Shown piece by piece: positions 6,663 to 60,295 of a stretch of DNA of 64,000 bases. Within the stretch, counting starts at the first letter, position 1, and the number at the start of each line of letters is the position of its first letter. Source of the stretch: an uncultured Chloroflexia bacterium (GTDB lineage: Bacteria; Chloroflexota; Limnocylindria; Limnocylindrales; CSP1-4); the NCBI GenBank assembly GCA_963705425.1, contig CAVPJO010000006.1, forward strand, positions 60,599 through 124,598, in the 5' to 3' direction. Made by a program: the position numbers and the translations under genes. Below the pieces are notes generated by a model that was not told the origin of the DNA, made no database searches, and was given only the letters and a program-made list of their open reading frames with translations.

Positions 6663-7682
6663 ATGATCAGGCGTCGCCCCGTGCTTGCAGCCACCGCGCT
6701 GCTGGCACTCACCGTGACCGCGAGCGGGACCGCGGCCGTCGCGCAAGATGAGCCACTGTCCGTCTTCGGCGCATATGCCACACAGATCGAAGAGCCGTGG
6801 GACGGTGTCATCCACACCGCGCTACAGGCGGCAGAGGACGCCGGCAGCATCGTCTACGACTATCGCCGACGACATCGGCTACTCCGGTGACATGGAGTTC
6901 GTGCTCCGCCAGGTCGCCGAGCATCGATGAGCCCGACATCATCTTCGGCGATGCCTTCGGCAACGAGGAAGCTGTTCGCGCGGTCGCGGCTGACTATCCG
7001 GACATCGCCTTCGTCTTCGGCTCCGGCGGCGGCCCGGCCGACCCCAACTTCAGCGTCTTCGACAACTGGATCCACGAGCCGGCCTACCTCGCCGGCATGC
7101 TCGCCGGTGGCCTGACCGAGAGCGGCATCATCGGCGTCGTCGGCGGCTACCCGTGCCCGAGGTCAACCGCATCACGCAACGCCTTCATCGCGGGCGCGCA
7201 GTCGGTGAACCCCGACGTCGAGGCCAAGGTCAGCTTCATCAACAGCTGGTTCGATCCGGCCGCGGCCAAGGAAGCCGCCCTGGCCCAGATCGATGCCGGC
7301 GCCGATGTGCTCTACGCCGAGCGTGCGGGCGTCATCGAGGCGGCCGTGCAGGAAGGGCGTCATCGCCGTCGGCAACATGAGCGACCAGTCGGCCGATGGG
7401 CCCGACAACGTGGTCACCAGCGTGACCTGGAACATGACTCCGACGGTCGAGTACATCATCGACCAGGTCGCGGGCGGCACCTACACCGCCCAGGACCTCA
7501 AGGACTTCAGCATGGTCGCCAAGGGCGGCGCCGCGCTGGCGCCCGTCAACGAGGCGCTCGTCCCGGCGGAGCTGCTCGAGGAGGTCAAGGCCGAGGAGGC
7601 CAGAGATCGACGTCGGGCCTGTCTTCCGCGTCGACATCAACGAGGCCACGCCCGCCAGGCTCGGTGACCCGCGACCCGAGTA
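6663..7682 (+). pseudogene. BMP-family ABC transporter substrate-binding lipoprotein (PnrA/Bmp-like, nucleoside type), at least 6 frameshifts
   Basis: MIRRRPVLAATALLALTVTASG signal peptide. BMP-like blocks spread over three frames: SIVYDY / ADDIGYSGDMEFVLRQVAE / IDEPDIIFGDAFGNEEAV...YPDIAFVFGSGG...GVVGGYP / VPEVNRIT / NAFIAGAQSVNPDVEAKVSFINSWFD... / VIAVGNMSDQ... / EIDVGPVFRVDINEATPARLG. Confidence 0.7.
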
Positions 7683-7705
7683 GACGTCCCGACAGCCCGA
7701 CCACG

Positions 7706-9282
<1,577 letters not shown>

Positions 9283-10431: not shown

Positions 10432-11351
10432 TCTTCCTCGCCGACATCATCGCGGCCACCTTCCGCAACGCCACACCGCTCGTCTACGGCACCGTGGGCG
10501 AGACCTACACCGAACGCGCGGGCATCCTCAACCTCGGTGTCGAGGGCACCATGTACGCGGGCGCCTTCTTCGGCTTCGCTACCGCCTACTACACCGGCAA
10601 CGTCTGGCTCGGCCTGCTCGGCGCCATCATGGTGGGCCTCATGGCCGGTGCCTTGATGGCGCTGATGACGGTCACGCTGGGAGCCAACCAGCACGTCAGC
10701 GGCCTGGGCCTGACCATCGTGCTCATCGGCGTCAGCGAGTTCGCCAACCGGCTCCTGTTCACCGGCGCCACCCTGGCTCGCATCGAGCCCATGCCGCTGT
10801 GGGACCCCCTGGCCGGCCTCGGCGAGGAGAACCCATTGGCCACCATCGCCAGCCAGTATGGGCTCACCTACATCGCCTTCCTGGCCGTCGTGCCCGTCGC
10901 CTGGTGGGTGCTCATGAAGACACCCCTGGGCCTGGCCATTCGCGCCGTGGGCGAGAACCCGGAGGCCGCCGACGTGGCCGGCATCAACGTCTTCCGGGTG
11001 CGCTACATCGCGCTCATGATCGGTGGTGCGCTGATGGCCGTCGGTGGTGCCTTCATCACCCTGGCCGTACTGGGCACCTTCACCCTGGACATCATCGCCG
11101 GCCGCGGATGGGTGGTCATCGCCCTGGTCATCTTCGGGCGCTGGCGCATCTTCCGCGGCGTCCTCGGAGCGCTCATCTTCGCGGGCGTCTACTCGCTGGG
11201 CCTGCGCTTGCATATCACGGCCGGTTTCGAGGCCATCCCCAACGAGATCATGCTGGCGCTGCCCTATGTCATCGTCATCGTGGCCCTGGCCATCTCGGGT
11301 CGCAACGTGCCCTACCCGGGCGCCTACCTGAAACCCTATCGCCGTTCCTGA
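10428..11351 (+). CDS. ABC transporter permease (second of two)
   Basis: Intact 307-aa polytopic ORF overlapping the previous permease by 4 nt. Confidence 0.8.
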   Translation: MIFLADIIAATFRNATPLVYGTVGETYTERAGILNLGVEGTMYAGAFFGFATAYYTGNVWLGLLGAIMVGLMAGALMALMTVTLGANQHVSGLGLTIVLIGVSEFANRLLFTGATLARIEPMPLWDPLAGLGEENPLATIASQYGLTYIAFLAVVPVAWWVLMKTPLGLAIRAVGENPEAADVAGINVFRVRYIALMIGGALMAVGGAFITLAVLGTFTLDIIAGRGWVVIALVIFGRWRIFRGVLGALIFAGVYSLGLRLHITAGFEAIPNEIMLALPYVIVIVALAISGRNVPYPGAYLKPYRRS

Positions 11352-11379
11352 GCATTCGACCGACATACGAGGAGGAGAC

Positions 11380-11826
11380 ATGGACGACCAGGCATTCATG
11401 AAGATCGCTATCGACGAGGGCGCGCAGGGGCTGGCCGAGGGCGGCGTGCCCGTCGGTGCCGCGCTGGTGGCCGACGGCAAGGTGCTCGGCTCCGGTCACA
11501 ACCGCCGCGTCCAGCAGAACAGCGTCATCCGCCACGGCGAGACCGACTGCCTCGAGAACATCGGCCGCCTGCACGCCTCGACCTACAAGCGAGCCACGAT
11601 GTACACCACGCTGTCACCCTGTGACATGTGCACGGGCGCCATCCTGCTCTACGGCATCCCGCGCGTGGTCATCGGTGAGAACGAGACCTTCATGGGTGGC
11701 GAGGAGTACCTGCGCTCCCGCGGCGTGGAGGTCGTCAACCTCGACTCGCCCGAATGCAAGGCGCTCATGGCCGAGTTCATCGAGCGCCACCCCGACATCT
11801 GGAACGAGGACATCGGCGAAGAGTAG
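11380..11826 (+). CDS. Cytosine deaminase, FCY1-type (CMP/dCMP deaminase zinc-binding fold)
   Basis: MDDQAFMKIAIDEGAQGLAEGGVPVGAALV...GSGHNRRVQ...HGETDCLEN...TLSPCDMCTGAILLYGIPRVVIGEN...DIWNEDIGE is colinear with yeast Fcy1, including the HxE and PCxxC zinc motifs. Confidence 0.85.
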   Translation: MDDQAFMKIAIDEGAQGLAEGGVPVGAALVADGKVLGSGHNRRVQQNSVIRHGETDCLENIGRLHASTYKRATMYTTLSPCDMCTGAILLYGIPRVVIGENETFMGGEEYLRSRGVEVVNLDSPECKALMAEFIERHPDIWNEDIGEE

Positions 11827-45587: not shown

Positions 45588-46998
<1,411 letters not shown>

Positions 46999-48263: not shown

Positions 48264-48684
48264 GGCCCGACGATACGCCTCTGGTCGCTGCCGATGGAGG
48301 GCCCTTGGCCCGACGGCTGGTCCGGGTGCTGCAGCCTGACCTCATGTGTCCAGGCGACGATGTCGCGGGCTCGCCCGGCGGTCGTGGCCGGGCGCGAGGC
48401 GACCTGGGTCACGAGAGCACCGCCCGGTTCCGAGCCTGGCACGATGTCGCGCCCGACCCCTGGCTGCTGCAGGCCGTCGCATCGGTCGAGTTCGCTCGTG
48501 GGCTGCACAGGCCGGGTCCGTGGCCGGGCCGGTCACGGCGCCGAGAGGCCGTCGCGCGAGGCCAGCGTCGGCCCAACAGACGGCGAAGTGGCGAGGCGGC
48601 GAGAGGCGCCGTCTCAAGGAGGCAGGAGACTACCGCCACGACGCACGCTCGAACCGCATCCGCGTACACTGCCGTTGTCTTGTG

Positions 48685-48759
48685 CGCCCGTAGCTCAGTG
48701 GATAGAGCGTCTGCCTCCGGAGCAGAAGGTCGTGGGTTCGAGTCCCGCCGGGCGCGCCA
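48685..48759 (+). tRNA. tRNA-Arg: tRNA-Arg (anticodon CCG), CCA encoded
   Basis: GCGCCCGTAGCTCAGTGGATAGAGCGTCTGCCTCCGGAGCAGAAGGTCGTGGGTTCGAGTCCCGCCGGGCGCGCCA. Anticodon stem TCTGC/GCAGA, loop CTCCGGA. Confidence 0.9.
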
Positions 48760-49090
48760 AACCCCCGGTTTCACGCTTACAACGGGCGGATGACCCTGTC
48801 CCTGCGTCGTCGTCGCTCCGCGGCGTCCATGTTGTTGCGCAGAGCATCTGCCGCTTGGCAGAGCTTGCCCTCGAAGCTGGGCTCGGCCTTGGAGTTGTTC
48901 CTGCCGCCCTTGGTGTCTGCCACTCAGCCCTTCCTCTTGCGCCTCCCATCGACGATGGGCGACAGTACACATCAAGATGCTCAGCCAATGAGGTCGTAGG
49001 GCGGCAGAACCGAGAACACCGCAGTCGGTGTGGTACGGGGTGAATGGCGACTGCGAGTGGCGCTGTCCACCTCCCTGCAGAAGAAACATC

Positions 49091-50302
49091 TCAAGAGCTG
49101 TCCTCGTCCCCGACCGCGTCCATCACGTCGGGAGCGACGTACATATCCTGATGTCCACGCGTGCCTACCTGGCTGAGTATCCCGAGCTCCTTGAGCCTCT
49201 GAACCTGCCGACGGGCATTGTGGTAGGGAACATCCAAGAGCTCTTGCGCCAGCGCGATCGTGATGAATGGCCGCTCAATCAGACGGCCCGCAAGCATGAC
49301 CGCACCTCCGGGTGCACGGGCGGATGCAGCGCGATCTTGCAGGCTGTCGCGAAGTTCGAACAGGCGCTTCGCACGCGTTGTTGCGTCCTTTGCCTGGATA
49401 GCCACGCCCTGTAGGAAGAACGAGAACCAGGCTGACCACTCCCCTCGTTCGGTGACGCCCTGGAGTCTCTCGTAGTACTCGACGCGGTTCCTTTCCAGAT
49501 ACGCGGAGAGATAGAGAAGCGGCAAAGGCAGAAGGCCCCAGTGAACGAAGAGCAGAGAGACGAGCAGACGGCCTACCCGCCCGTTCCCGTCATTGAACGG
49601 GTGGATGGCCTCGAACTGGTAGTGGATGGCGGCGAGGCGGACAAGTCGATGGAGCAATGGGTCGTCGGAACGTGCGTACTCCTCAAACTGCTGTAGGGCG
49701 TCGCGCATCTGAACTGGCGGAGGCGGAATGTAGGTCGCAGTGGTGAGCGTTGCCCCAGGTGGGCCGATCAGGTTCTGTCCGTCACGAAACTCGCCGGGAG
49801 TCAGCTCTCGGCCCCGTACGCCCCGCATCAGATGGGAGTGAAGTTCTCGTAGCAGCGCCAAAGACACCGGATAGTGCTGGATGGCGTCGATACCTCTATT
49901 GAGAGCTGTCACATAGTTGAGGACCTCGCGAACATCCCGTGGCTGCCCGCGACGGGTCCGAGTGTTCTCGTCCTCATCGTCGGCCACTCCAGGTAGTCGG
50001 AGTTGTGCTTCGAATGCGTACAAGTCCGCGATCGTCGCCTGGGTTCCCTCGATTCGCGACGATAGGACGGCTTCCTTCCTGAGAAACGGACTCAGCAGGA
50101 TATTTGCGTTCGCCAGATTGCTGCCTGCGCCAGCGAGTTCGCCAAGGGCTCCCGCCGCATCGCCGAGCACGGTGGCGAGTGGAGCGTCGAACTCGAACTG
50201 GGGCGGGAGGGCGCCGGGCACCCAAGCCCAGTAGTCAAGGCCGTGGTGCTCCGCCCGCACCGAGTGGCCGGGTCCGCCCCAGGATCGTGGGTCTGTGACC
50301 AT
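49091..50302 (-). CDS. Fic/DOC family protein with N-terminal Fic_N-like domain
   Basis: HPFNDGNGRVGRLL (Fic motif HPFx[D/E]GNGRxxR) and upstream SSRIEGT. 403 aa, intact. Confidence 0.8.
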   Translation of the reverse strand: MVTDPRSWGGPGHSVRAEHHGLDYWAWVPGALPPQFEFDAPLATVLGDAAGALGELAGAGSNLANANILLSPFLRKEAVLSSRIEGTQATIADLYAFEAQLRLPGVADDEDENTRTRRGQPRDVREVLNYVTALNRGIDAIQHYPVSLALLRELHSHLMRGVRGRELTPGEFRDGQNLIGPPGATLTTATYIPPPPVQMRDALQQFEEYARSDDPLLHRLVRLAAIHYQFEAIHPFNDGNGRVGRLLVSLLFVHWGLLPLPLLYLSAYLERNRVEYYERLQGVTERGEWSAWFSFFLQGVAIQAKDATTRAKRLFELRDSLQDRAASARAPGGAVMLAGRLIERPFITIALAQELLDVPYHNARRQVQRLKELGILSQVGTRGHQDMYVAPDVMDAVGDEDSS

Positions 50303-50523: not shown

Positions 50524-50585
50524 CTCCGGAGCAGAAGGCCGTGGTTCGAATCCCGCCGGGCGCGCCACTCCCTTGGCTTCACGCT
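50524..50585 (+). repeat. Partial direct repeat of the 3' half of tRNA-Arg plus about 20 nt of its 3' flank (att-like scar)
   Basis: CTCCGGAGCAGAAGGcCGTGG-TTCGAaTCCCGCCGGGCGCGCCActCCCttGGcTTCACGCT compared with 48713-48780 CTCCGGAGCAGAAGGtCGTGGgTTCGAgTCCCGCCGGGCGCGCCAaaCCCccGGtTTCACGCT. Confidence 0.65.
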
Positions 50586-50873: not shown

Positions 50874-51953
50874 GTGTTCTACAGCAGACGAATCCGACTC
50901 ACACTGATGGCGACGATGGCGGCAGTGCTCGCGGTGGGCACCATGGGCGCAGCCGGCGCTGAGCCTGAGGAAGGCTCCGAGCTCCACTTCCTGAACTGGG
51001 AGGAGTACGTCGACCCGCAAGTCGTCGAGGACTTCGAAGCGGAGTTCGGCATCGACGTCATCATCGACTTCTTCTCAGACGAGAACGAGCTTGTGTCGGT
51101 CATCCAGGCTGACACGTCGCGATACGATCTCTTCACTACCTCTGACGCGACGCTCCACGAGATGATCGTGCAGCGGCTCGTCGCTGAGCTGGACCTCGAC
51201 AACATCCCGAACCTGGTCAACGTGGATCCGCGCTACCTCGATCTGCCCAACGATCCCGGCAGCAAGCACAGTGTGCCCTACGACTGGGGCACGACAGGGC
51301 TCGTCTACAACACCGACTGCATCCAGCCCGAAGAGGAATCCTGGAGCCTGCTGATGGACCCGCGTGTTCGCGGACGAATCGGCATGGACACGGACTTTCA
51401 GGTGGTCCTGGGAAGCGCCTTGAAGAGCCTGGGCTACCCGCTCAACTCGGGTGATCCGGCGCAGATCGAGGAGGCGGTGGATCGCTTGATGGAGTTGAAG
51501 TTGGATCAGGGCATGGAGTTCATCGTCTGGAACGACATGCTCGATCGGGTCACTGCGGGCGATCTGTGTGTGGGGCTCGCGTTCAACGGTGACGCGGCCG
51601 TCTACATGGATGAGTACGACAACCTTGGATACTTCGTGCCCACTGAGGGGTCGGATTTCTACCTCGACGTCCTGGCCATCCCTCGCGATGCTCCGAACAA
51701 GGCCGCTGCAGAGTCGTTCATCGACTATCTGCTCAGGCCGGAGGTGCATGCCGCGAACAACGAGTACACGGGCTACGCCGTCCCCAATCGGGCGTCCATC
51801 GAGGAGGGGTACGTCAGCGCAGAGATACTGGCTGACCCCGTCATCTATCCGGACACTGCCGGTCTCGAAGCGTGGATGCCCTTTGCCGCGGACTCTGACC
51901 GTCTGGGTCTCTGGAACGAGGCCTGGTCCAGATTCGTCCTGGCGACCAGCTAG
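50874..51953 (+). CDS. Periplasmic polyamine-binding protein, PotD/PotF/NspS-like (orphan SBP; alternative start 50907)
   Basis: Signal peptide RRIRLTLMATMAAVLAVGTMGAAGA. PotD-like blocks (LHFLNWEEYVDPQVVEDFEAEFGI, VPYDWGTTGLVYN, DFYLDVLAIPRDAPNKAAAESFIDYLLRPEV). Confidence 0.75.
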   Translation: MFYSRRIRLTLMATMAAVLAVGTMGAAGAEPEEGSELHFLNWEEYVDPQVVEDFEAEFGIDVIIDFFSDENELVSVIQADTSRYDLFTTSDATLHEMIVQRLVAELDLDNIPNLVNVDPRYLDLPNDPGSKHSVPYDWGTTGLVYNTDCIQPEEESWSLLMDPRVRGRIGMDTDFQVVLGSALKSLGYPLNSGDPAQIEEAVDRLMELKLDQGMEFIVWNDMLDRVTAGDLCVGLAFNGDAAVYMDEYDNLGYFVPTEGSDFYLDVLAIPRDAPNKAAAESFIDYLLRPEVHAANNEYTGYAVPNRASIEEGYVSAEILADPVIYPDTAGLEAWMPFAADSDRLGLWNEAWSRFVLATS

Positions 51954-51973
51954 TCCAGGGCCGTAACGGACGC

Positions 51974-54445
51974 GTGTCGCCGTTTCGATCGTCGCTTCGC
52001 CGCATCGTCCTTGGAGGCAGCTTCCGAGGACGATTCGGCCGCGCCTCAGTGCTCACCGCACTGGCACCCCTGCTGGCGCTGGCCCTGGTCTTCGTGACGT
52101 CGGCGCGAACCGATCTCGAAGGCGTGGCCAGAGAAAACCTGGCGAACCAGGCGCGCCTCCAGGCGACTGCGGTGGACAGCGTCCTCAAGAACGCAAGCGA
52201 GGCCGTGGGGGTGCTGGCGGCCAATCCCATCCTCCGCGATGAGGATGCGGAACCGGAACAGATCCGTCAGCAGCTCGACGCCTATAGCCAGTTCGACGAG
52301 ATCGTGCTCTTGCACCCGGCCGGAGTGGTCATCGAGGCTACGTCGTATCGCTTCTCCGGCCGTTGGGATGCGAACGCCGCCTTCCGTGGCGCGATGGCGG
52401 GGCGACAGGTCATGACACCGCCGCTCTTCTATTCCGATCCAGATCGACTCGTCGTTGAGCACGCCGCTCCGGTCATCAGAGACGGTGACGTCGTGGCCGT
52501 GGTCGTGGGTACCATGAACATGGATCGCGTTTGGCAGGCCCTCGACGACGTCACCATCGGGCGGTCCGGCTACTTCGCTGCATTCGACCAGCATGGCAAT
52601 GTCATCGCACACCCGGACAAGTCGCTGGTCCTCCGGAAGTTGGAGGGCTTCCCGTCCTCGAGCGATGGCTCGAGCGAGACTCCCGTTCGATACGTTCAGC
52701 CCGATGGAACGGCCCAGGTCGGCTACAGCGTGACCGTCCCATCCTCCGGGTGGCGCGTGGCTGCGCTCGAGCCGGAGGACGAGGCCTACGCTATCGCAGA
52801 TACGGCGGTGTCCAGGGTCTGGCTCGTGGCCATCGTGGCCCTGTTGATCGCGCTCGGCACGGTGCTCGTCGTGTCCCGCGCGGTCTCCAAGCCGATGGAG
52901 ACGGTGAACATGGCCATGCGCAGCATCGCCGACGGCCACCTGGAGCAGCGGGTCCGACCGGCAGGACTCGAAGAGATCGACCGGCTGGCGGGCTCGTTCA
53001 ACGCGATGGCCGCCGAGCTGGAGGAGCGCAGCGCTCTGCTGGATGCGGAGATGGCCGAGCGCGACCGCGCCGAGCAGCGCATCAAGTACCAGGCCTATCA
53101 CGACCCCTTGACCGGTCTGCCCAACCGGATGCTACTCAAGGATCGCCTGGACCTGGCCCAGGCGGATGCGCGTCGAAGCGGCGAAGCGTTGGCCCTGATG
53201 TTCCTCGACCTGGATCGCTTCAAGCTGGTCAACGATTCGATGGGTCACACGTTCGGCGACGAGCTGCTCTTGAGTGTCGCCGATCGGATCACCAGCGAGC
53301 TGCGGGAGGGTGATTCGGTGGCCCGTGTGGGTGGCGACGAATACGTCCTGTTGCTGCCGCGCGTGTCGGGCCCGGAAGAGGCCCTCGCGGCTGCTCACCG
53401 GGTCGTCGAGAGTCTGCGCGTGCCCTGGGAGGTGGACGGCAGGGAGTTCCACCTCACGGCCAGTATCGGGATCGCGTTGTACCCCGGTGACGGGGTCGAT
53501 GCCGAGTCGCTGATGCGGAACGCCGACACCGCCATGTATCAGGCCAAGGAAGAGGGGCGGGACCGCATCCGGGTCTTCCGAGCCGAGATGGACGAGAGCG
53601 TCCAGCAACGGGTGAGGCTCGAGCAGGACCTGCGCCTCGCGCTGCAGCTGGAGCAGTTCGTGCTCCACTACCAGCCCCTGGTCCATTCCGATACGGGTCG
53701 CGTCACCGGCATGGAAGCGCTGCTGCGCTGGGACTGTCCCAAGCGTGGACTCGTGCCCCCGGACAGGTTCATCTCCCTCGCCGAAGAGACCGGTCTCATC
53801 TGGGAACTCGGCCGCTGGGTGCTCAGGACGGCCTGCGCCCAGGTCCAGGCCTGGACCGCATCCGGGCAGATCGATAGCTTGTCGGTGTCTGTGAATGTCT
53901 CGGCTCGGCAGTTCCATGACATGGGCATCGTCGACGAGGTCCAAAGCGCCCTGGCCGAGACGGGCCTGCCTCCAGGCCAACTCGAGCTCGAGATCACCGA
54001 GAGCACCGCGATGCGCGACGTCGAGCACAGCATACGAACGCTCACCCGGCTCAGGGAGATGGGTGTGCGCGTGTCGATCGACGACTTCGGTACCGGCTAC
54101 TCCTCGCTCTCATACCTCAAACGGTTCCCGGTCGACATCGTCAAGATCGACCGCTCATTCGTGATGGACATCTCCCACGACCCCGATGATGCCGCCATCG
54201 TGGCCGCCATCATCGCCCTGGCCAGGAGCCTCAAGATGGAAACCGTGGCCGAAGGGGTCGAAACGGACGAACAACTCGCATTCCTGCAGGCGCACGGTTG
54301 CCCGTCATTCCAGGGGTTCCTCTTCAGCAAGGCACTGCCCCCAGCGGAACTGGTTCGACTGCTGGCCGACGGCGCATTCCGGGAATCCGAGCCGCGCGAC
54401 ACGACGATGCCAGCGCTCCGGCGGCAGCTCGCGCTCAGCCAGTAG
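51974..54445 (+). CDS. Membrane-bound sensory GGDEF-EAL protein (periplasmic Cache-like domain, HAMP, diguanylate cyclase and phosphodiesterase domains), MbaA-like
   Basis: TM helix, an about 250-aa periplasmic domain and a second TM helix. HAMP. RVGGDEYVLLL (GGDEY variant). EAL domain with GMEALLRW, DDFGTGYSSL and KIDRSFV. 823 aa, intact. Confidence 0.9.
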   Translation: MSPFRSSLRRIVLGGSFRGRFGRASVLTALAPLLALALVFVTSARTDLEGVARENLANQARLQATAVDSVLKNASEAVGVLAANPILRDEDAEPEQIRQQLDAYSQFDEIVLLHPAGVVIEATSYRFSGRWDANAAFRGAMAGRQVMTPPLFYSDPDRLVVEHAAPVIRDGDVVAVVVGTMNMDRVWQALDDVTIGRSGYFAAFDQHGNVIAHPDKSLVLRKLEGFPSSSDGSSETPVRYVQPDGTAQVGYSVTVPSSGWRVAALEPEDEAYAIADTAVSRVWLVAIVALLIALGTVLVVSRAVSKPMETVNMAMRSIADGHLEQRVRPAGLEEIDRLAGSFNAMAAELEERSALLDAEMAERDRAEQRIKYQAYHDPLTGLPNRMLLKDRLDLAQADARRSGEALALMFLDLDRFKLVNDSMGHTFGDELLLSVADRITSELREGDSVARVGGDEYVLLLPRVSGPEEALAAAHRVVESLRVPWEVDGREFHLTASIGIALYPGDGVDAESLMRNADTAMYQAKEEGRDRIRVFRAEMDESVQQRVRLEQDLRLALQLEQFVLHYQPLVHSDTGRVTGMEALLRWDCPKRGLVPPDRFISLAEETGLIWELGRWVLRTACAQVQAWTASGQIDSLSVSVNVSARQFHDMGIVDEVQSALAETGLPPGQLELEITESTAMRDVEHSIRTLTRLREMGVRVSIDDFGTGYSSLSYLKRFPVDIVKIDRSFVMDISHDPDDAAIVAAIIALARSLKMETVAEGVETDEQLAFLQAHGCPSFQGFLFSKALPPAELVRLLADGAFRESEPRDTTMPALRRQLALSQ

Positions 54446-54449
54446 GGGC

Positions 54450-54830
54450 ACGGTACGCCGCCGCTAGCGGCGCGGGTCGAGCGCGGCCGGGATCTCCGCT
54501 GCGCCTGTCTCGCGACCCGTGGGTCGACCGCATCCGAAGAGGTCACCAAGGCCACATTCCTGCGTGCCCATCGGTCACTCGTCGGCCTTGATGGAGCCGC
54601 GACAGTCCGCCCGTGGCTCATGGACGTCACCGCGACGGTCGCGAAGACGCAACTCCGGCAGCCCCATGCCGACACATGCGGAGCGTGAGGCGTTGGCGGC
54701 AGCGTTTGACGGCCTGACCGACCGGGACCAGCGCATCATCGAGTCCCGCTACGGCTTCGACCTGACTCGCGACGAAGCTGCGGTTCGCATGGCCTCAAGA
54801 CCTGAGGGGCGTGGCTCCGGTCAGGGCTCG
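54450..54830 (+). pseudogene. Remnant of an ECF-type sigma-70 family factor (regions 2 and 4 in different frames)
   Basis: EEVTKATFLRAHRSLVGLDGAATVRPWLMDVTATVAKTQLR (region-2-like) in one frame. EREALAAAFDGLTDRDQRIIESRYGFDLTRDEAAVRMA (region-4 HTH) in another. Confidence 0.35.
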
Positions 54831-55216
54831 AGGGTGACCACCGTCCAGCCGGCCAGGCCGTCAGTCGGGCAGGAGCCCGATGTGGTGACGAGGATCCGCT
54901 CTCCAGCCTCAGCGGCCTCGCGGTAGGCGTCGATCTCGCTGAAGTCACATGGTGCGTAGACCGAGCTGTCGCGGAAACGCAGCCGATCCTGCCAGGAGTG
55001 GATGAGGTCCTTCTCGGTGGCCAGTGCGAACTCCGAGTAGCTCTGGTCGTCGATCCGGTCGAGCTCGCCGGGCACCTGCCGCCAGACCTCCCTCATGGGA
55101 AAGGAGCTGTCGACCACCACGAACACCCGCTCGGTGTCCCGTGACAGCGAGATGAGCACGGCGAGCGCCCCGAAGACGAGCAGCAGCCCGGCCAGGAAGA
55201 TAGCCAAGGGCTTCAA
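54821..55216 (-). CDS. Small N-terminally anchored membrane/secreted protein, last gene of the TelA/vWA operon
   Basis: MKPLAIFLAGLLLVFGALAVLISL anchor. Lies 5 nt downstream of the vWA gene. Confidence 0.5.
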   Translation of the reverse strand: MKPLAIFLAGLLLVFGALAVLISLSRDTERVFVVVDSSFPMREVWRQVPGELDRIDDQSYSEFALATEKDLIHSWQDRLRFRDSSVYAPCDFSEIDAYREAAEAGERILVTTSGSCPTDGLAGWTVVTLEP

Positions 55217-55221
55217 GCTGC

Positions 55222-56922
55222 CTAGACCCCGGCGTTGAAGAGCGACACGAGCTTGAACTCGACATCGCCCTCACTGGCATTGATGCTGGCCGCCTCCACC
55301 AGGGAAGCCAGCCGGCCAAGCTCGTCAAGGTCAGCCTCGAAGCCGACCGTGAACACCGGGATGCGCGCACCCGCGATGACCTCGTCGACATCCCCGAACT
55401 CGAGGCCCTCGTTGGTCTCGCCGTCGGTCAACACCACGAGCATGTACTTGCCGCTCGGGTCAGCCGCACGCTGCTCGATGAGCATGTCCAGGCCAAGCAC
55501 GATACCGTCGTACATGGCCGTTCCGCCGACCGGATCCATGTCCTCGACGGCAGCCGCGAAACGAGCCTGCTGGTTGAGGTCGAAGGTCGCGATATCGAGC
55601 ACCTTGCGCACGCTGTCGCTGAACTCGACCATGCCCACCGATGCTGCGGGGTTGATGAACTCGCGAGCCGAGCTCAGCGCGCCCTGCACGGCCACGATCC
55701 GGGAGCCGGCCATGGACCCGCTGGTGTCGGTCACGAAGACCGCGTAGACGGGCCGCCCCGCGTCCTTCTTGTCCTTCCACAGGCTCTGCGCTTCGATGAG
55801 CGTCTGCCCGGACGGGACAGACACATCCGAGACGAAGTCGGGCGGAGCGAAGCCGTACTCAGACGCCTTGTCCCGGAGCTCCTGGCCCTCGATGTGGGCA
55901 GCGAACGACTCCAGGGTCTCCCGCTCCCCCGGCGTCGCGCTGTCGAAGGCATACAGTGGGTTGTCGTGGCGGACCCCGAAGGGGATGAACTCGAAACCAG
56001 ATCGCAGTGAGTCGGTGTTGGCGAAGGTCTGCCATTCCATGACGAAGGCGTCGAGCGTGCCGTTGTCCTTCTCCACCGAGTCCCGCATCTGGATGGTGGT
56101 GAAGGCCACGAACGGCACCTGCTCCTGGAACGCCTGGAAGACGCTGGCCACGTCGGGCGCGACCAGGCGCGCTTCGTCACCCGCGGCGAAATCGTCGAGC
56201 ACGGTGAGCAGGAAGTTGAGCCCGGTCGAGGAAGCGAACGGGTCCGTGTAGCCCATCACCAGCTCGCCGGCGATGACTGCTTCGATGAGCGTCTTGGTGT
56301 CGAGCTCGCCGTACTTCTCGCGAAGCTGCTCCGCGGTCTCGTCCTTCATGACGATGCCGGCCACGTTGGGCACGGTCTGATCGGTCACGACGGACATGGG
56401 CCTGTGCACCTTGGCCATCTCGACCCAGAGGTGGTTGGAAGGGCTGAAGCCGGCGGGCACGTTGTCGCCCGCGGCGATGAACTGGTAGCCCGTGCCCGAA
56501 GCGATCTTGCGGATGGCGACCTTGGCGTCGCGCCCATCGGCCAGCTTCTGGTTCGAGGCGTTGAAGGATTCGGCAGCCTCGACCATCCAGCCATCGATGC
56601 CGGAACCGGACTTCTCGGTGGAGGCGAAGATCTCAGCCACGACCTGGTCGGAGCGCGGCTGCGGATCGACCACGAGCGCGAACTGGCTGATGTCGGGGAG
56701 CGTATCGGCGAGCACCTTCTGCGGCGGCGCCACGCTGGCCTTGCGGGTGACCGGCGCATCGAACCAGCCGATGTCAGCAGCCAGCTCGCTGATGCTCTGC
56801 TCCGCCGAGGCTTGGTCGAGCGGCTCGGTGTCGCCATCGAGATCACCGCTGCAGGCTGTGACCGCCAAAGCGAGCGCCACCAGGGCCGCGATGAGGAGCT
56901 TCGGTCGCGTGTTGTCTGTCAT
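55222..56922 (-). CDS. Lipoprotein with C-terminal von Willebrand factor A (vWA) domain
   Basis: Lipobox LALAVTAC|SG. C-terminal vWA with VYAVFVTDTSGSMAGSR (DxSxS MIDAS), LVVLTDGETNEG and IPVFTVGF. 566 aa. Confidence 0.8.
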   Translation of the reverse strand: MTDNTRPKLLIAALVALALAVTACSGDLDGDTEPLDQASAEQSISELAADIGWFDAPVTRKASVAPPQKVLADTLPDISQFALVVDPQPRSDQVVAEIFASTEKSGSGIDGWMVEAAESFNASNQKLADGRDAKVAIRKIASGTGYQFIAAGDNVPAGFSPSNHLWVEMAKVHRPMSVVTDQTVPNVAGIVMKDETAEQLREKYGELDTKTLIEAVIAGELVMGYTDPFASSTGLNFLLTVLDDFAAGDEARLVAPDVASVFQAFQEQVPFVAFTTIQMRDSVEKDNGTLDAFVMEWQTFANTDSLRSGFEFIPFGVRHDNPLYAFDSATPGERETLESFAAHIEGQELRDKASEYGFAPPDFVSDVSVPSGQTLIEAQSLWKDKKDAGRPVYAVFVTDTSGSMAGSRIVAVQGALSSAREFINPAASVGMVEFSDSVRKVLDIATFDLNQQARFAAAVEDMDPVGGTAMYDGIVLGLDMLIEQRAADPSGKYMLVVLTDGETNEGLEFGDVDEVIAGARIPVFTVGFEADLDELGRLASLVEAASINASEGDVEFKLVSLFNAGV

Positions 56923-56951
56923 GACGCGTTCCCCATTGGTGCGGGTCTGAT

Positions 56952-58154
56952 TCAGGCGTCCCTCTCGACATCGAGCGAGCCGACCGCTGCCGTGCCGCGC
57001 TCGTGCGTCTCGATGGCCTTCTCGGCCTCGGTCGTGAGCTGGTCCAGTTCGACGATGCTGTGCGCCATCTGGGGCAGGGCCTCGCGGCGGTAGCGTGAGA
57101 TCTCATCGAGGGCGATGTTGATGTCACCGAAGGCTGACTTGAGAGCTTCCATGTCCAGCATCGTGCTCGCGGCCTGTTGGTGGATCTGGGTGCCCTGCGT
57201 CTTGAGGCGCTCGGCCGTGCCGGCGATGAGGTCGGATGTGGTGCGGTTGAGCGCCTCGACCTTGTCGAGGACGACCTTCTGATGGGCCACGGCCATGGCC
57301 ACCGCGACGGCGATCTGGAGGGCGCTGATGGTCACGTCCACGGCGCGGTCCACGCCGCGCACGAGCTCGCGGTTGTTGCGGATGATCAGCGCGGTCGCAA
57401 GCACGCCTTGCTGGTTCACGGCCAGCTGCTGCTGCAGGTCCATGGTGCGCTGGCGCAGGATGAAGACGAGCTCCTCCTCGATGAAGGCACGTCGCGGATC
57501 ACCCGGCTCGATCTCCTCGTCGAGCTTGGCGTTGATGGCCGCATCGAGGGCCTGCGCGAGGGCCACCTGCTCAGACAGCGTCAGCGTCAGCTCACGCATG
57601 TTCTTCTGGTCCTCGTTGAGGGTCACGTTGTCGCGCTTGAGTTGATCACGCCCGCTCTCGAGCGAACGGATGATGGCGTCGATGACGCCTTGCGACGTCT
57701 CGAACTGCATGAAGTAGCGCTGCAGTGGCGTGCCCAGGCCCGGGATCATGCGCAGCGTGCGGTTGAACCAGCCCGGCTCGAGATCGAGCGAGGTGGGGTC
57801 CAGCTTCTCGACCTCGATGCGCAGATCAGCCAGGGACTTGGCGACCGGGCCTCCCTCTTCGGTCTCGCGCGAAAGGTCTCGCAAGGGCGCCTGCAGCATG
57901 CGGCTACGACTGGCCGCGCGCCGCTGCAGGTCGCGACCCATGCCCTCGACCGCGTCGATGCTGGTGACCCTGGCGTCCTGGTCAGCGGGGTCCACGGCGA
58001 CGAGCTGGGCGGCATACTCAGCCGCCCGCTGCTGCAGCTTCTGGTCGATGGTCGGCTCGACCACGACCACCTCGGCCTTGGTCTCCTCGACGTTCAGATC
58101 GAGCTTCAGTACGGGGCTCTCGTCCCGGCCCGCGGATCCGGTTTGGCTCGTCAT
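56952..58154 (-). CDS. TelA/YaaN-like toxic-anion-resistance family protein (all-helical, about 400 aa)
   Basis: Size, helical repeat composition, a C-terminal YRREALPQM-type block and linkage to a 2TM XpaC-like gene resemble the TelA/KlaA family. Assigned from family resemblance, not a motif search. Confidence 0.6.
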   Translation of the reverse strand: MTSQTGSAGRDESPVLKLDLNVEETKAEVVVVEPTIDQKLQQRAAEYAAQLVAVDPADQDARVTSIDAVEGMGRDLQRRAASRSRMLQAPLRDLSRETEEGGPVAKSLADLRIEVEKLDPTSLDLEPGWFNRTLRMIPGLGTPLQRYFMQFETSQGVIDAIIRSLESGRDQLKRDNVTLNEDQKNMRELTLTLSEQVALAQALDAAINAKLDEEIEPGDPRRAFIEEELVFILRQRTMDLQQQLAVNQQGVLATALIIRNNRELVRGVDRAVDVTISALQIAVAVAMAVAHQKVVLDKVEALNRTTSDLIAGTAERLKTQGTQIHQQAASTMLDMEALKSAFGDINIALDEISRYRREALPQMAHSIVELDQLTTEAEKAIETHERGTAAVGSLDVERDA

Positions 58155-58207
58155 CTATGCACTCCCTTTGGCTCGCTGACTGGCAACAGCAGCGACGTCT
58201 CCTGATA

Positions 58208-58962
58208 TCAGGTGGTGGCGTATCGGCTGGCCCGATCGGCCAGCTCTTCGAGTGCTTCCATGGCCGCCTCGGCATCTCGCGGGGTCAAGCCGATGGGTGC
58301 GTCCGCGAGGGCGGTCGAGGTGCGGTCGAGCAAGGTCATGGCCGATTCGTTCTGGGCCAGCAGGTAGGTGACCTTAGCCTGTTGTGTGGCCGCCAATGCG
58401 CGGCGATCCTGCAGCGACTCGATCTCTGCCTGCGTGGAGTCACCGGCCTCGCCCTTGAGCTCGGCCAACCTGGCGTCGATGTAGTCGGGGTCGATGGTGC
58501 TGACGCTGCCCATGGCCACCGCGACCTCCCGCAGGTTGCTGATGACCGCAAGGTAGACCTGCTGGGCGGTCGACTGGTAGCGCGCATAGGTCAACTCGCC
58601 GGTCTTGAGGCGCCGGTCGAGCATGGCCGACAGGTTTTCACGCTTCACCGTGATGGCCTGTAGCTGGTGGGCCGGACGCGGGTCGTCGAGTCGCTCCAAC
58701 TCGTCACGGAGCAGGCGCAAGTCCGTGTCGCTCACCTCGGGCAGGGTCGGTGCCTTGAACTGCAGTCGCCTGAGCGTTCCGGTCGCAGCAAGCAAGAGCG
58801 GCCAGGCGACGACGGCGATGATGCCGACCACGACGACCACGACGGCCAGCACCGTCGGCGGCTGCATGAGCATCAGGATCGCAGCCACGAGCACCACCAC
58901 GGCACCGATCGCGATCCAGGAGGGCGGGTAGCTCATGACCGCCTGCCACCAACTCTTCATGC
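58208..58962 (-). CDS. XpaC-like 2-TM protein with cytoplasmic coiled-coil domain, first gene of the operon
   Basis: MKSWWQAV..., two TM helices (IAIGAVVVLVAAILMLM and VLAVVVVVVGIIAVVAWPLLLAA), then a helical domain. Lies 53 nt upstream of the TelA-like gene. Confidence 0.5.
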
Positions 58963-59191
58963 CATCGAACCTCCAGCCTTGATGTGGCCCGCGGAGTATC
59001 CATGATGACTGTCGGCGGCAACGACCGGTAGTCGCAAGAGCCATCCGGCCCACGGGCCGAGAGCGGGGCGAGGAGTCGGGCCAGGGGCCGGGCGCAGACC
59101 ATGTGCTGGCCGTGCGCCCCGGGCTGAACGGCCCCCGACGAGGGTCTGATCGAACGTTCCGAGCGCGCCCGACCAGCTCTAGGCTGGCGGT

Positions 59192-60295
59192 ATGAAACGC
59201 GTAGTGCTGCACTTGACATTGCTTGCGATCATCGTCGCGGCCATGGTCATCGGCATCGCGGCCGGCCTGGCACGCCTGGGCATCGAGGTGCCCACGGCGG
59301 CCATGGAGCGCGCCCTGGACCACGGCCCCATCCTCGTGGCCGGCGTCTTCGGCACGCTCATCTCACTGGAACGCGCAGTGGCCATGCGTACTGTCATGAC
59401 GCGCGGCTGGACGTGGGCTGACGCAGCCCCGGTGCTCGGTGGCGCCGGCACCATCGTGCTGCTGATCGATGGCGCCACCGTGCCCGCGATGGCCTTGCTG
59501 ACCGCCGGCGCAGCCGTCCTGGTCGGGGTCAACCTCGAGATGCTGCGACGCCATCCCACGCTGGATGTGCTGACCATGGCCATCGGCGCAGGCTTCCTGC
59601 TGCTGGCCGACGCGGCCTGGCTGGCCGCGCGCCCGGTGCCCTTCCTGACGCCGTGGTGGATGGCCTTCCTGGTGCTGACCATCACTGGCGAGCGACTGGA
59701 ACTGGCCCGGTTGCGCGTGCAGGGCCGCTTCGCCCGGGCCTCGTTCGCGGTCGCAGCCGCGGTCTACATCGGTGCGCTGCTGTCCATGACCGCCGATGTC
59801 GCGCTGGGCGTCCGCCTGTCCGGCATCGGCATGGTCGCGCTCACGGCCTGGTTGCTGCGCTTCGACATCGCCTGGCTGACCATCCGGCGCCCGGGACTGC
59901 CACGCTTCGTGGCTGCTTGCCTGCTGGCCGGCTACGCCTGGCTGGGAGTGGCCGGGCTCATCGCGGTCATGAACGAGCAGATCTGGGCCGGCTTCAGCTA
60001 CGACGCCTACCTGCACGCCGTGCTGCTCGGCTTCGTGTTCTCGATGGTCTTCGGCCACGCACCCATCATCTTTCCGGCCATCCTGGAGCGGCCCATCAGC
60101 TTCCACCCCATCGCCTGGCTGCCACTGGTTCTGCTCCACGTCGCGGTCGCGGCACGCATCCTTGGCGACGTGGCCATGAACCAGGCGCTGCGACAGGGCG
60201 CGGGCCTGCTGACCGGAGTCGCTATCGCCGCCTACGGCGTGGTCATCGTCGTCGGCCTCAGCGGGGGTCGTGGATCGCGCAGCGGCGGCGGATAG
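59192..60295 (+). CDS. Polytopic integral membrane protein of unknown function (10-12 TM, conserved His residues)
   Basis: 367-aa intact ORF. Hydrophobic helices throughout. FSMVFGHAPIIFPAIL block. Confidence 0.55.
   Translation: MKRVVLHLTLLAIIVAAMVIGIAAGLARLGIEVPTAAMERALDHGPILVAGVFGTLISLERAVAMRTVMTRGWTWADAAPVLGGAGTIVLLIDGATVPAMALLTAGAAVLVGVNLEMLRRHPTLDVLTMAIGAGFLLLADAAWLAARPVPFLTPWWMAFLVLTITGERLELARLRVQGRFARASFAVAAAVYIGALLSMTADVALGVRLSGIGMVALTAWLLRFDIAWLTIRRPGLPRFVAACLLAGYAWLGVAGLIAVMNEQIWAGFSYDAYLHAVLLGFVFSMVFGHAPIIFPAILERPISFHPIAWLPLVLLHVAVAARILGDVAMNQALRQGAGLLTGVAIAAYGVVIVVGLSGGRGSRSGGG

Follow-up and report, generated by a model that had tools for sequence, protein, structure and literature searches.

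A pair of adjacent genes in metagenomic contig CAVPJO010000006.1, one encoding a PotD-family binding protein and the other a membrane-bound GGDEF-EAL enzyme with a dCache sensor domain (hereafter the transducer), is proposed here to constitute a two-gene extracytoplasmic sensing module, in which the binding protein signals through the enzyme. We put the probability of this reading at about 0.72. The pair lies in a stretch of 64,000 nucleotides (the window) and had been singled out in an earlier note, made from the letters alone, which likened it to the NspS–MbaA module of Vibrio cholerae. The arrangement that the note described is borne out: both open reading frames (ORFs) are present, co-oriented and 20 nt apart; the membrane GGDEY-EAL enzyme has a periplasmic Cache-like domain (Pfam dCache_1, 1e-21); and no PotB/PotC-type permease was found anywhere in the 64 kb, only unrelated ATP-binding cassette (ABC) systems. 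The features of the pair are as follows.

50874..51953, + strand: binding-protein gene (PotD/PotF family, 359 amino acids (aa); GTG start at 50874, TAG stop at 51953)
50874..50960, + strand: predicted N-terminal signal sequence, aa 1-29, VFYSRRIRLTLMATMAAVLAVGTMGAAGA, then EPEEG (translation, hydropathy and low model confidence)
51954..51973, + strand: intergenic spacer of 20 nt between the binding-protein and transducer genes (sequence)
51974..54445, + strand: transducer gene (823 aa, GTG start), with the order transmembrane helix 1 (TM1), dCache_1, TM2, HAMP, GGDEF, EAL (Pfam)
52046..52108, + strand: TM1, about aa 25-45 (Kyte-Doolittle window analysis)
52115..52765, + strand: dCache_1 sensor domain, extracytoplasmic, aa 48-264 (Pfam PF02743, 1e-21)
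52820..52882, + strand: TM2, about aa 283-303 (hydropathy)
52871..53026, + strand: HAMP linker domain, aa 300-351 (Pfam, 4e-11)
53093..53566, + strand: GGDEF diguanylate-cyclase domain, aa 374-531 (Pfam, 1e-49)
53303-53314, + strand: I-site RxxD, here REGD, aa 444-447, five residues upstream of GGDEY
53330-53344, + strand: cyclase motif GGDEY, aa 453-457 (motif position)
53624..54331, + strand: EAL phosphodiesterase domain, aa 551-786 (Pfam, 1e-81)

The case for a module begins with the company that the binding protein keeps. A homologue search across 5.8 billion proteins recovered a tight set of some 41 relatives, 43-95% identical and all of metagenomic or metagenome-assembled genome (MAG) origin, beyond which identity drops to 30-37%; in a phylogenetic tree the clade that holds the binding protein comprises 45 sequences (34-95% identity). 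Contexts were inspected for nine relatives, a metagenome scan gave five more loci, and every locus was scanned for domains. Counting the window, 13 non-redundant clade loci have readable context; in all 13 a dCache_1 membrane transducer adjoins the binding protein, and in none do ABC genes stand beside it. Among relatives outside the clade, 62 of 74 reside in operons of the potABCD type, with an ATPase and two permeases, and not one of these 62 is next to a dCache protein; the Halomonas protein P0069 is transport-type. The pairing of binding protein with dCache transducer – 13/13 in the clade versus 0/62 among transport-type relatives (Fisher p about 8e-15, the loci being not fully independent) – is far from chance.

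The output to which the dCache domain is joined differs among these loci:

dCache-HAMP-GGDEF-EAL: the window, L001, L003, L009 and L010
dCache-HAMP-GGDEF-HD-GYP: L005, L007 (with the gene order reversed) and L072
dCache-PAS-histidine kinase: L008 and L012
dCache-HAMP only: L080
locus cut by the end of the contig: L073 and L079

Flanking genes, too, are unrelated from locus to locus. Distances among the binding proteins closely track distances among the sensor regions of their partners (Mantel r = 0.92, 0/5000 permutations). Co-divergence, swapped outputs and variable flanks together argue that the binding protein and the dCache domain form one sensory unit: their co-inheritance is strict and ancient, while the outputs are interchangeable.

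Three of the loci have features of their own. At L003 (8001-11567) the pair is found between rpoC and rpsL, within the otherwise highly conserved rpoBC-rpsL-rpsG-fusA-tuf cluster. At L080 (7022-8311; low GC, 32.5%) the partner is a protein of 430 aa with the order TM-dCache-TM-HAMP-coiled-coil and no enzymatic output domain. L007, from a Dehalococcoidia MAG, carries a heliorhodopsin gene (10835-11611) some 1.7 kb from the pair.

Pairings of this kind may extend beyond the clade. At L156 (6001-10188), whose binding protein is outside the clade at 31% identity, two tandem PotD-like genes are followed by a dCache_1-HAMP-histidine kinase, the whole being set in a cluster of hybrid kinases plus a GGDEF-HD-GYP protein. 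The locus suggests that PotD-family proteins have been paired with dCache sensors on other, separate occasions as well. P0061, representing a more distant group with two tandem PotD-like proteins and a dCache-HAMP-kinase, suggests likewise that the co-receptor principle is broader.

A neighbour-joining tree of 178 PotD-family members places all 14 dCache-linked entries in the one 45-member clade, which contains no ABC-linked member. The nearest sequences outside it are L076 and L114 (39-41% identity to the window binding protein), both transport-type and encoded in operons with an ATPase and two permeases. Clade members also carry residues of their own at positions that are nearly fixed in transporters (D69, E70, D80, R101, D261, R271, W334, W347 and N348); substitutions relative to transport PotDs include N to E70, G to D80 and E/D to V177. 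It appears that a transport-type PotD was recruited independently into this module, in a lineage that is probably Chloroflexota.

That the product of the first gene belongs to the PotD/PotF family is clear from both sequence and predicted fold. Pfam matches SBP_bac_8 (9e-25), and also SBP_bac_1 and SBP_bac_6; the best match among solved structures (phmmer against PDB) is Streptococcus pneumoniae PotD (4eqb, 3e-55), with Listeria Lmo0810, Escherichia coli PotD and E. coli PotF among the further top matches and no structure of NspS among them. An AlphaFold model built from the clade alignment has a mean confidence (pLDDT, predicted local distance difference test) of 90.7, and Foldseek aligns it to 4eqb with a TM-score (template-modelling score) of 0.83/0.92; all 30 of its best fold matches in PDB are polyamine-binding proteins. 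The protein therefore combines a type II periplasmic binding fold with a PotD-like sequence. NCBIfam PotD and PotF are its top models, but it falls well short of their equivalog cut-offs (for PotD, 164 bits versus 582).

The binding protein is predicted to be exported, by a Sec/Tat-type signal in the window copy. The signal sequence has a charged n-region containing RR and a hydrophobic segment at aa 9-29, coincides with low pLDDT (aa 1-31) and has no lipobox cysteine; the likely cleavage site is AGA|EPE, in SRRIRL...AGA|EPE. The cleavable-looking signal without a lipobox is a feature of the window's subclade, whereas most other clade members are lipoproteins (lipobox AAC|G). Between the two genes no terminator-like site was found on the + strand of the 20-nt spacer, and the spacers of related pairs are comparable (6-28 nt, or an overlap); the genes are probably co-transcribed.

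The GTG start of the second gene, which encodes the transducer, is backed by a conserved N-terminus in the L003 orthologue. Hydrophobic segments at aa 21-45 and 272-306 flank the dCache_1 domain, which scores 78 bits against a gathering threshold of 45 and sits between two TM helices. NCBIfam matches are to bifunctional diguanylate cyclase/phosphodiesterase models, every one below cut-off. In addition to GGDEY and the I-site, the GGDEF domain contains DPLTGLPNR and LDLDRFKLVND, and the motifs for Mg and substrate are present; GGDEY and RxxD are kept in the orthologues at L001, L003 and L010, and the relatives with HD-GYP output retain GGDEF. The EAL motifs are complete (EALLR, ELEITE, DDFGTGYSSL, KIDRSF, EGVET and FQGF). 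Diguanylate-cyclase activity is accordingly a prediction for the GGDEF domain, and the intact catalytic motifs predict phosphodiesterase activity for the EAL domain.

How would such a module operate? The exported PotD-family protein would bind a polyamine-like ligand and, depending on its ligand state, dock onto the dCache domain or be released from it. TM2 and HAMP would transmit the resulting change inward from the dCache domain, shifting the balance between synthesis (GGDEF) and hydrolysis (EAL), such that the external amine level would set the intracellular level of cyclic di-GMP (c-di-GMP).

This is the logic expected of NspS–MbaA, the system with which the pair invites comparison, and which is known from V. 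cholerae (VC0704/VC0703) and Sinorhizobium meliloti (SMc00991/SMc00992). A published survey of it took in Proteobacteria only (222 of 16,076 genomes), and V. cholerae NspS is reported to be 32% identical to that of S. meliloti. MbaA has the architecture TM-periplasmic domain-TM-HAMP-GGDEF-EAL (PMC9993111; 2025 bioRxiv preprint), with SGDEF and no RxxD I-site (PMC9993111) and, in V. cholerae, EVL; its sensor has been called 'dCache-like' (Matilla 2021 review). Reference nspS-mbaA loci (L018, L025, L031, L045 and L053) were retrieved by means of the S. meliloti primer pNspS-R (PMC9993111, Table S1), and our NspS comparisons cover the Sinorhizobium-type branch alone. The periplasmic domains of Ensifer and S. 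meliloti MbaA are 75.6% identical, which indicates that the retrieved Ensifer loci are genuine orthologues of the studied system. The primer itself matches an fsr-like gene of the major facilitator superfamily upstream of nspS, not nspS (L031 1926-4097; L157 661-1857), and its 20-mer is kept in 57 species-representative contigs, mostly of Rhizobiaceae. Two plasmid candidates for NspS-like pairs from a tblastn search were discarded: the Shinella match adjoins an amidase, and the Leisingera match lies in an ABC operon.

Could the pair simply be a true NspS/MbaA orthologue, a proteobacterial system gained by horizontal transfer? Gene order and overall architecture are identical: in both systems an orphan SBP_bac_8 binding protein stands directly upstream of, and co-oriented with, a TM-sensor-TM-HAMP-GGDEF-EAL protein. 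The cytoplasmic parts of the window transducer and Ensifer MbaA are, moreover, 33% identical, and the description of the MbaA sensor as dCache-like points the same way. We nonetheless consider orthology very unlikely. The window binding protein is only 25-26% identical to NspS of Ensifer LC163 and S. meliloti, compared with 39-41% to the transport PotDs L076 and L114. Against a profile of the clade NspS reaches 130-142 bits, below every class of transport PotD (median 276 bits); conversely, a profile of NspS scores the clade at a median of 88 bits and transport PotDs at 112; and in the tree NspS pairs with transport-type L099 (bootstrap 91). The BLASTP alignment between the window transducer and Ensifer MbaA runs only from TM2/HAMP onward, with no periplasmic similarity detectable, and a Pfam scan of Ensifer MbaA gave no dCache_1 and no HAMP match, whereas the window sensor is a canonical Pfam dCache_1. 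The motifs differ (GGDEY, RxxD and EAL versus SGDEF without the I-site, and EVL in V. cholerae), as does the spacing, for the NspS–MbaA genes overlap. Unlike NspS–MbaA, the input of binding protein and dCache also occurs joined to HD-GYP or histidine-kinase outputs, and the host is probably a member of the Chloroflexota rather than of the Proteobacteria in which NspS–MbaA was surveyed. Finally, synteny of the pair is kept in a related contig, and no repeats bound the pair itself.

An NspS-like arrangement that fails the tests of orthology is better read as independent recruitment from transport PotD. By its sequence the pair is a functional analogue of NspS–MbaA and, as far as tested, phylogenetically separate from it. 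The likeness drawn in the earlier note thus survives as an orphan binding protein tied by conserved adjacency to a sensor enzyme, but not as common descent; and of the two origins that it offered, convergent assembly fits better than acquisition. It had also held that a binding protein closer to transport-type PotD than to NspS would weaken the signalling interpretation. The profile comparison does fall on the side of transport PotD, yet the signalling reading is not weakened by it because of the evidence from genomic context.

Dedicated binding proteins beside dCache-type membrane receptors are not new: LuxP–LuxQ, HptA–HptS, CBP–ChiS, ScrB–ScrC and BasB–BasT are all of this type, and ScrB–ScrC also has a GGDEF-EAL output (Matilla 2021 review). 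Those pairs make use of Peripla_BP_4, SBP_bac_3, SBP_bac_5 and other families, with other ligands; none combines a PotD-family protein with a canonical dCache_1 domain.

The pocket bears on the ligand. For mapping it we used the spermidine contacts of E. coli PotD known from structural and mutational work (Sugiyama/Kashiwagi 1996); the residue identities were checked in the E. coli sequence. Seven of the 14 mapped positions are kept in the window protein. Those kept in the clade (E. coli PotD numbering) are W34, E36, Y37, S83, D168, D257 and Y293, which the window protein has in common, along with fold and family, with the transport proteins PotD, PotF, SpuD and SpuE; it differs from them in having no permease or ATPase partner, in its other pocket residues and in the residues of the clade signature. 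Changes in the window protein include E171 to V, Y85 to A, W229 to F and W255 to Y; across the clade T35 is replaced by E/D, W229 by F/Y, W255 by Y and Q327 by F. Of the PotD residues we take E171 to matter most for binding spermidine. Specificity is probably different from that of PotD. As acidic and aromatic residues still box in the pocket, a polyamine or related organic cation is the best guess: the ligand would be a small organic polycation, most probably a polyamine or a close relative.

The dCache domain is informative in the same regard. The solved sequences closest to it are the sensor domains of PctC (2e-09), PctA (1e-06) and PctB. PctA, PctC and PctD are direct sensors, but the motif residues of these nearest solved relatives are lost in the window: R126, W128 and D173 of PctA correspond to N134, A136 and T180. 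Across 11 partner proteins the position of D173 is occupied by T, S, Q or R and in none by Asp, while that of R126 is N or K; in PctA, substitutions of D173 abolish binding. Judged from this alignment, the window domain is without the motif of the direct amino-acid and amine sensors (dCache_1AA and dCache_1AM), which fits sensing by way of the binding protein rather than by direct binding. An exhaustive search of 1.84 billion representatives found only 12 clusters with this sensor domain at E<=1e-30. For ten of the 12 the best match is the sensor region of a partner that adjoins a binding protein (34-100% identity); the other two (P0247 and P0249) match partners best over the cytoplasmic part only.

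Several observations weigh against the proposed module, or at least against parts of it. Co-divergence of adjacent genes is also expected from simple vertical co-inheritance, and the 45-member clade as a whole has a bootstrap of 48-60% in a simple neighbour-joining tree (values are higher inside it). A PotABC system that also uses this binding protein could be encoded elsewhere in the genome. GGDEY is a non-canonical cyclase motif, and the activity is a prediction from sequence. E171 of PotD is Val in 38 of the 45 clade members and Y85 is Ala, Ser or Thr across the clade, so that the ligand may be something other than a classical polyamine. That the two proteins dock, what the ligand is, in which direction the module responds and what phenotype follows are all things that we infer.

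Three further alternatives were weighed. One is that the protein is an ordinary transport component serving a distant PotABC-type importer, its adjacency to a GGDEF-EAL gene being meaningless. Sequence and fold do, after all, place the protein clearly among PotD/PotF homologues, no more than 64 kb of the genome are visible, and its relatives are annotated as 'spermidine/putrescine transport system substrate-binding protein'. We give this explanation hardly any credence, given a dCache partner and no ABC genes at every readable clade locus in spite of varied flanks, one inversion and three types of output, substitutions at E70, D80 and V177, and a PotD model score far below its cut-off. A dual role, in which the binding protein supplies a distant importer as well as signalling through dCache, as has been proposed for CBP–ChiS and GltB–GtrS, is unlikely. 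Several binding proteins that stimulate sensors do also serve transporters (Matilla 2021 review); known genes with dual roles, however, usually sit with transporter genes, as no clade member does, and positions conserved among transport PotDs are altered in the clade. A stronger contender, although we lean against it, is that the module does signal, but in response to something other than a classical polyamine (a different amine, a diamine of another length, agmatine or some unrelated cation), or that dCache binds a second ligand itself, with the binding protein only modulating. The pocket changes (E171, Y85, T35, W255 and Q327) speak for this, as does the fact that direct ligand binding is common among dCache domains. 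On the other side, the other acidic and aromatic residues of the pocket are kept, there is an extra acid at the position of T35, every one of the 30 best structural neighbours binds polyamines, and the dCache domain is without the Asp that is canonical for amine and amino-acid binding (other ligand classes aside).

Combining these strands, we hold, at a little short of even odds, that PotD-family co-receptors have been recruited more than once, and that one such event gave rise to a Chloroflexota-centred, portable cassette of binding protein plus dCache_1, deployed on three outputs and with a ligand other than that of PotD. The last element follows from the replacement of E171 by Val and from the new acidic residues.

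Two insertions or deletions lie close to the pair. Upstream are a tRNA gene, a Fic gene and a partial copy of the tRNA:

48684-48759: tRNA-Arg(CCG), ahead of the Fic gene
49091-50302, - strand: Fic_N+Fic gene, between tRNA-Arg and its partial copy
50524-50585, + strand: remnant copy of the tRNA-Arg 3′ half, a repeat (about 88%) of 48715-48777

The remnant is 290 nt upstream of the binding-protein gene and includes bases from downstream of the tRNA. Contig L001 is related and 95% identical over the pair; there tRNA-Arg stands directly upstream of the binding-protein gene. By this comparison the remnant marks the original junction of tRNA-Arg and binding-protein gene, and a Fic/DOC segment of 1.8 kb has been inserted at the 3′ end of the tRNA, duplicating that end; no integrase is left in the insertion. 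The possibility that the pair is cargo of a tRNA-Arg island was considered and rejected: since tRNA-Arg adjoins the same pair in L001, only the 1.8-kb Fic segment is an insertion, and the pair is resident. An Rfam scan of 48-55.5 kb found only the tRNA, and a scan for promoters and terminators returned nothing above shuffled expectation.

Downstream, about 4.7 kb of the window (54499-59191) is replaced in L001 by about 0.6 kb containing a NUDIX gene, the second such difference beside the pair. The segment holds three genes:

55222-56922, - strand: VWA-domain protein
56952-58154, - strand: TelA
58208-59323, - strand: ORF without Pfam matches

The ABC systems of the window are an ABC-2 exporter (60.9-63.4 kb), a Bmp/BPD_transp_2 system (6.8-11.4 kb) and otherwise unrelated ABC ATPases. 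Some genes look frameshifted. A class II fumarase is split, with Lyase_1 19-85 in the ORF at 46386-46994 and 224-312 plus FumaraseC_C in the ORF at 45588-46346; in the ORF at 6797-8425 part of a Bmp binding protein is fused to part of an ABC ATPase; and L001 has many very short gene calls. Such genes, in the window and in L001, result from indel errors in the assembly or else are pseudogenes; both genes of the pair are intact.

The earlier note took the host for a high-GC Gram-positive (actinobacterial) type of genome. Two observations argue otherwise: the named relatives of the SufS protein encoded in the window, at 82-85% identity, come from Chloroflexota MAGs, and named members of the binding-protein clade come from Chloroflexota and Dehalococcoidia MAGs. 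On this evidence the genome probably belongs to a member of the Chloroflexota.

Studies of c-di-GMP control by binding proteins of the polyamine family have until now dealt with V. cholerae and S. meliloti, and no such system in Chloroflexota is described in the literature searched. The same logic is now found in uncultured, probably Chloroflexota, bacteria of soil and sediment, apparently by independent recruitment, and should interest specialists in c-di-GMP, polyamine sensing and the modularity of sensors. There is a consequence for annotation: clade members are named as transport proteins though none is encoded with a transporter, and the clade signature (D69, E70, D80, V177, D261, R271, W347 and N348) could flag sensor-type PotD homologues. 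Beyond this, the clade constitutes a natural series – one input, comprising binding protein and dCache, coupled to three outputs – that would be useful for understanding how binding proteins communicate with dCache domains and for the construction of chimeric sensors.

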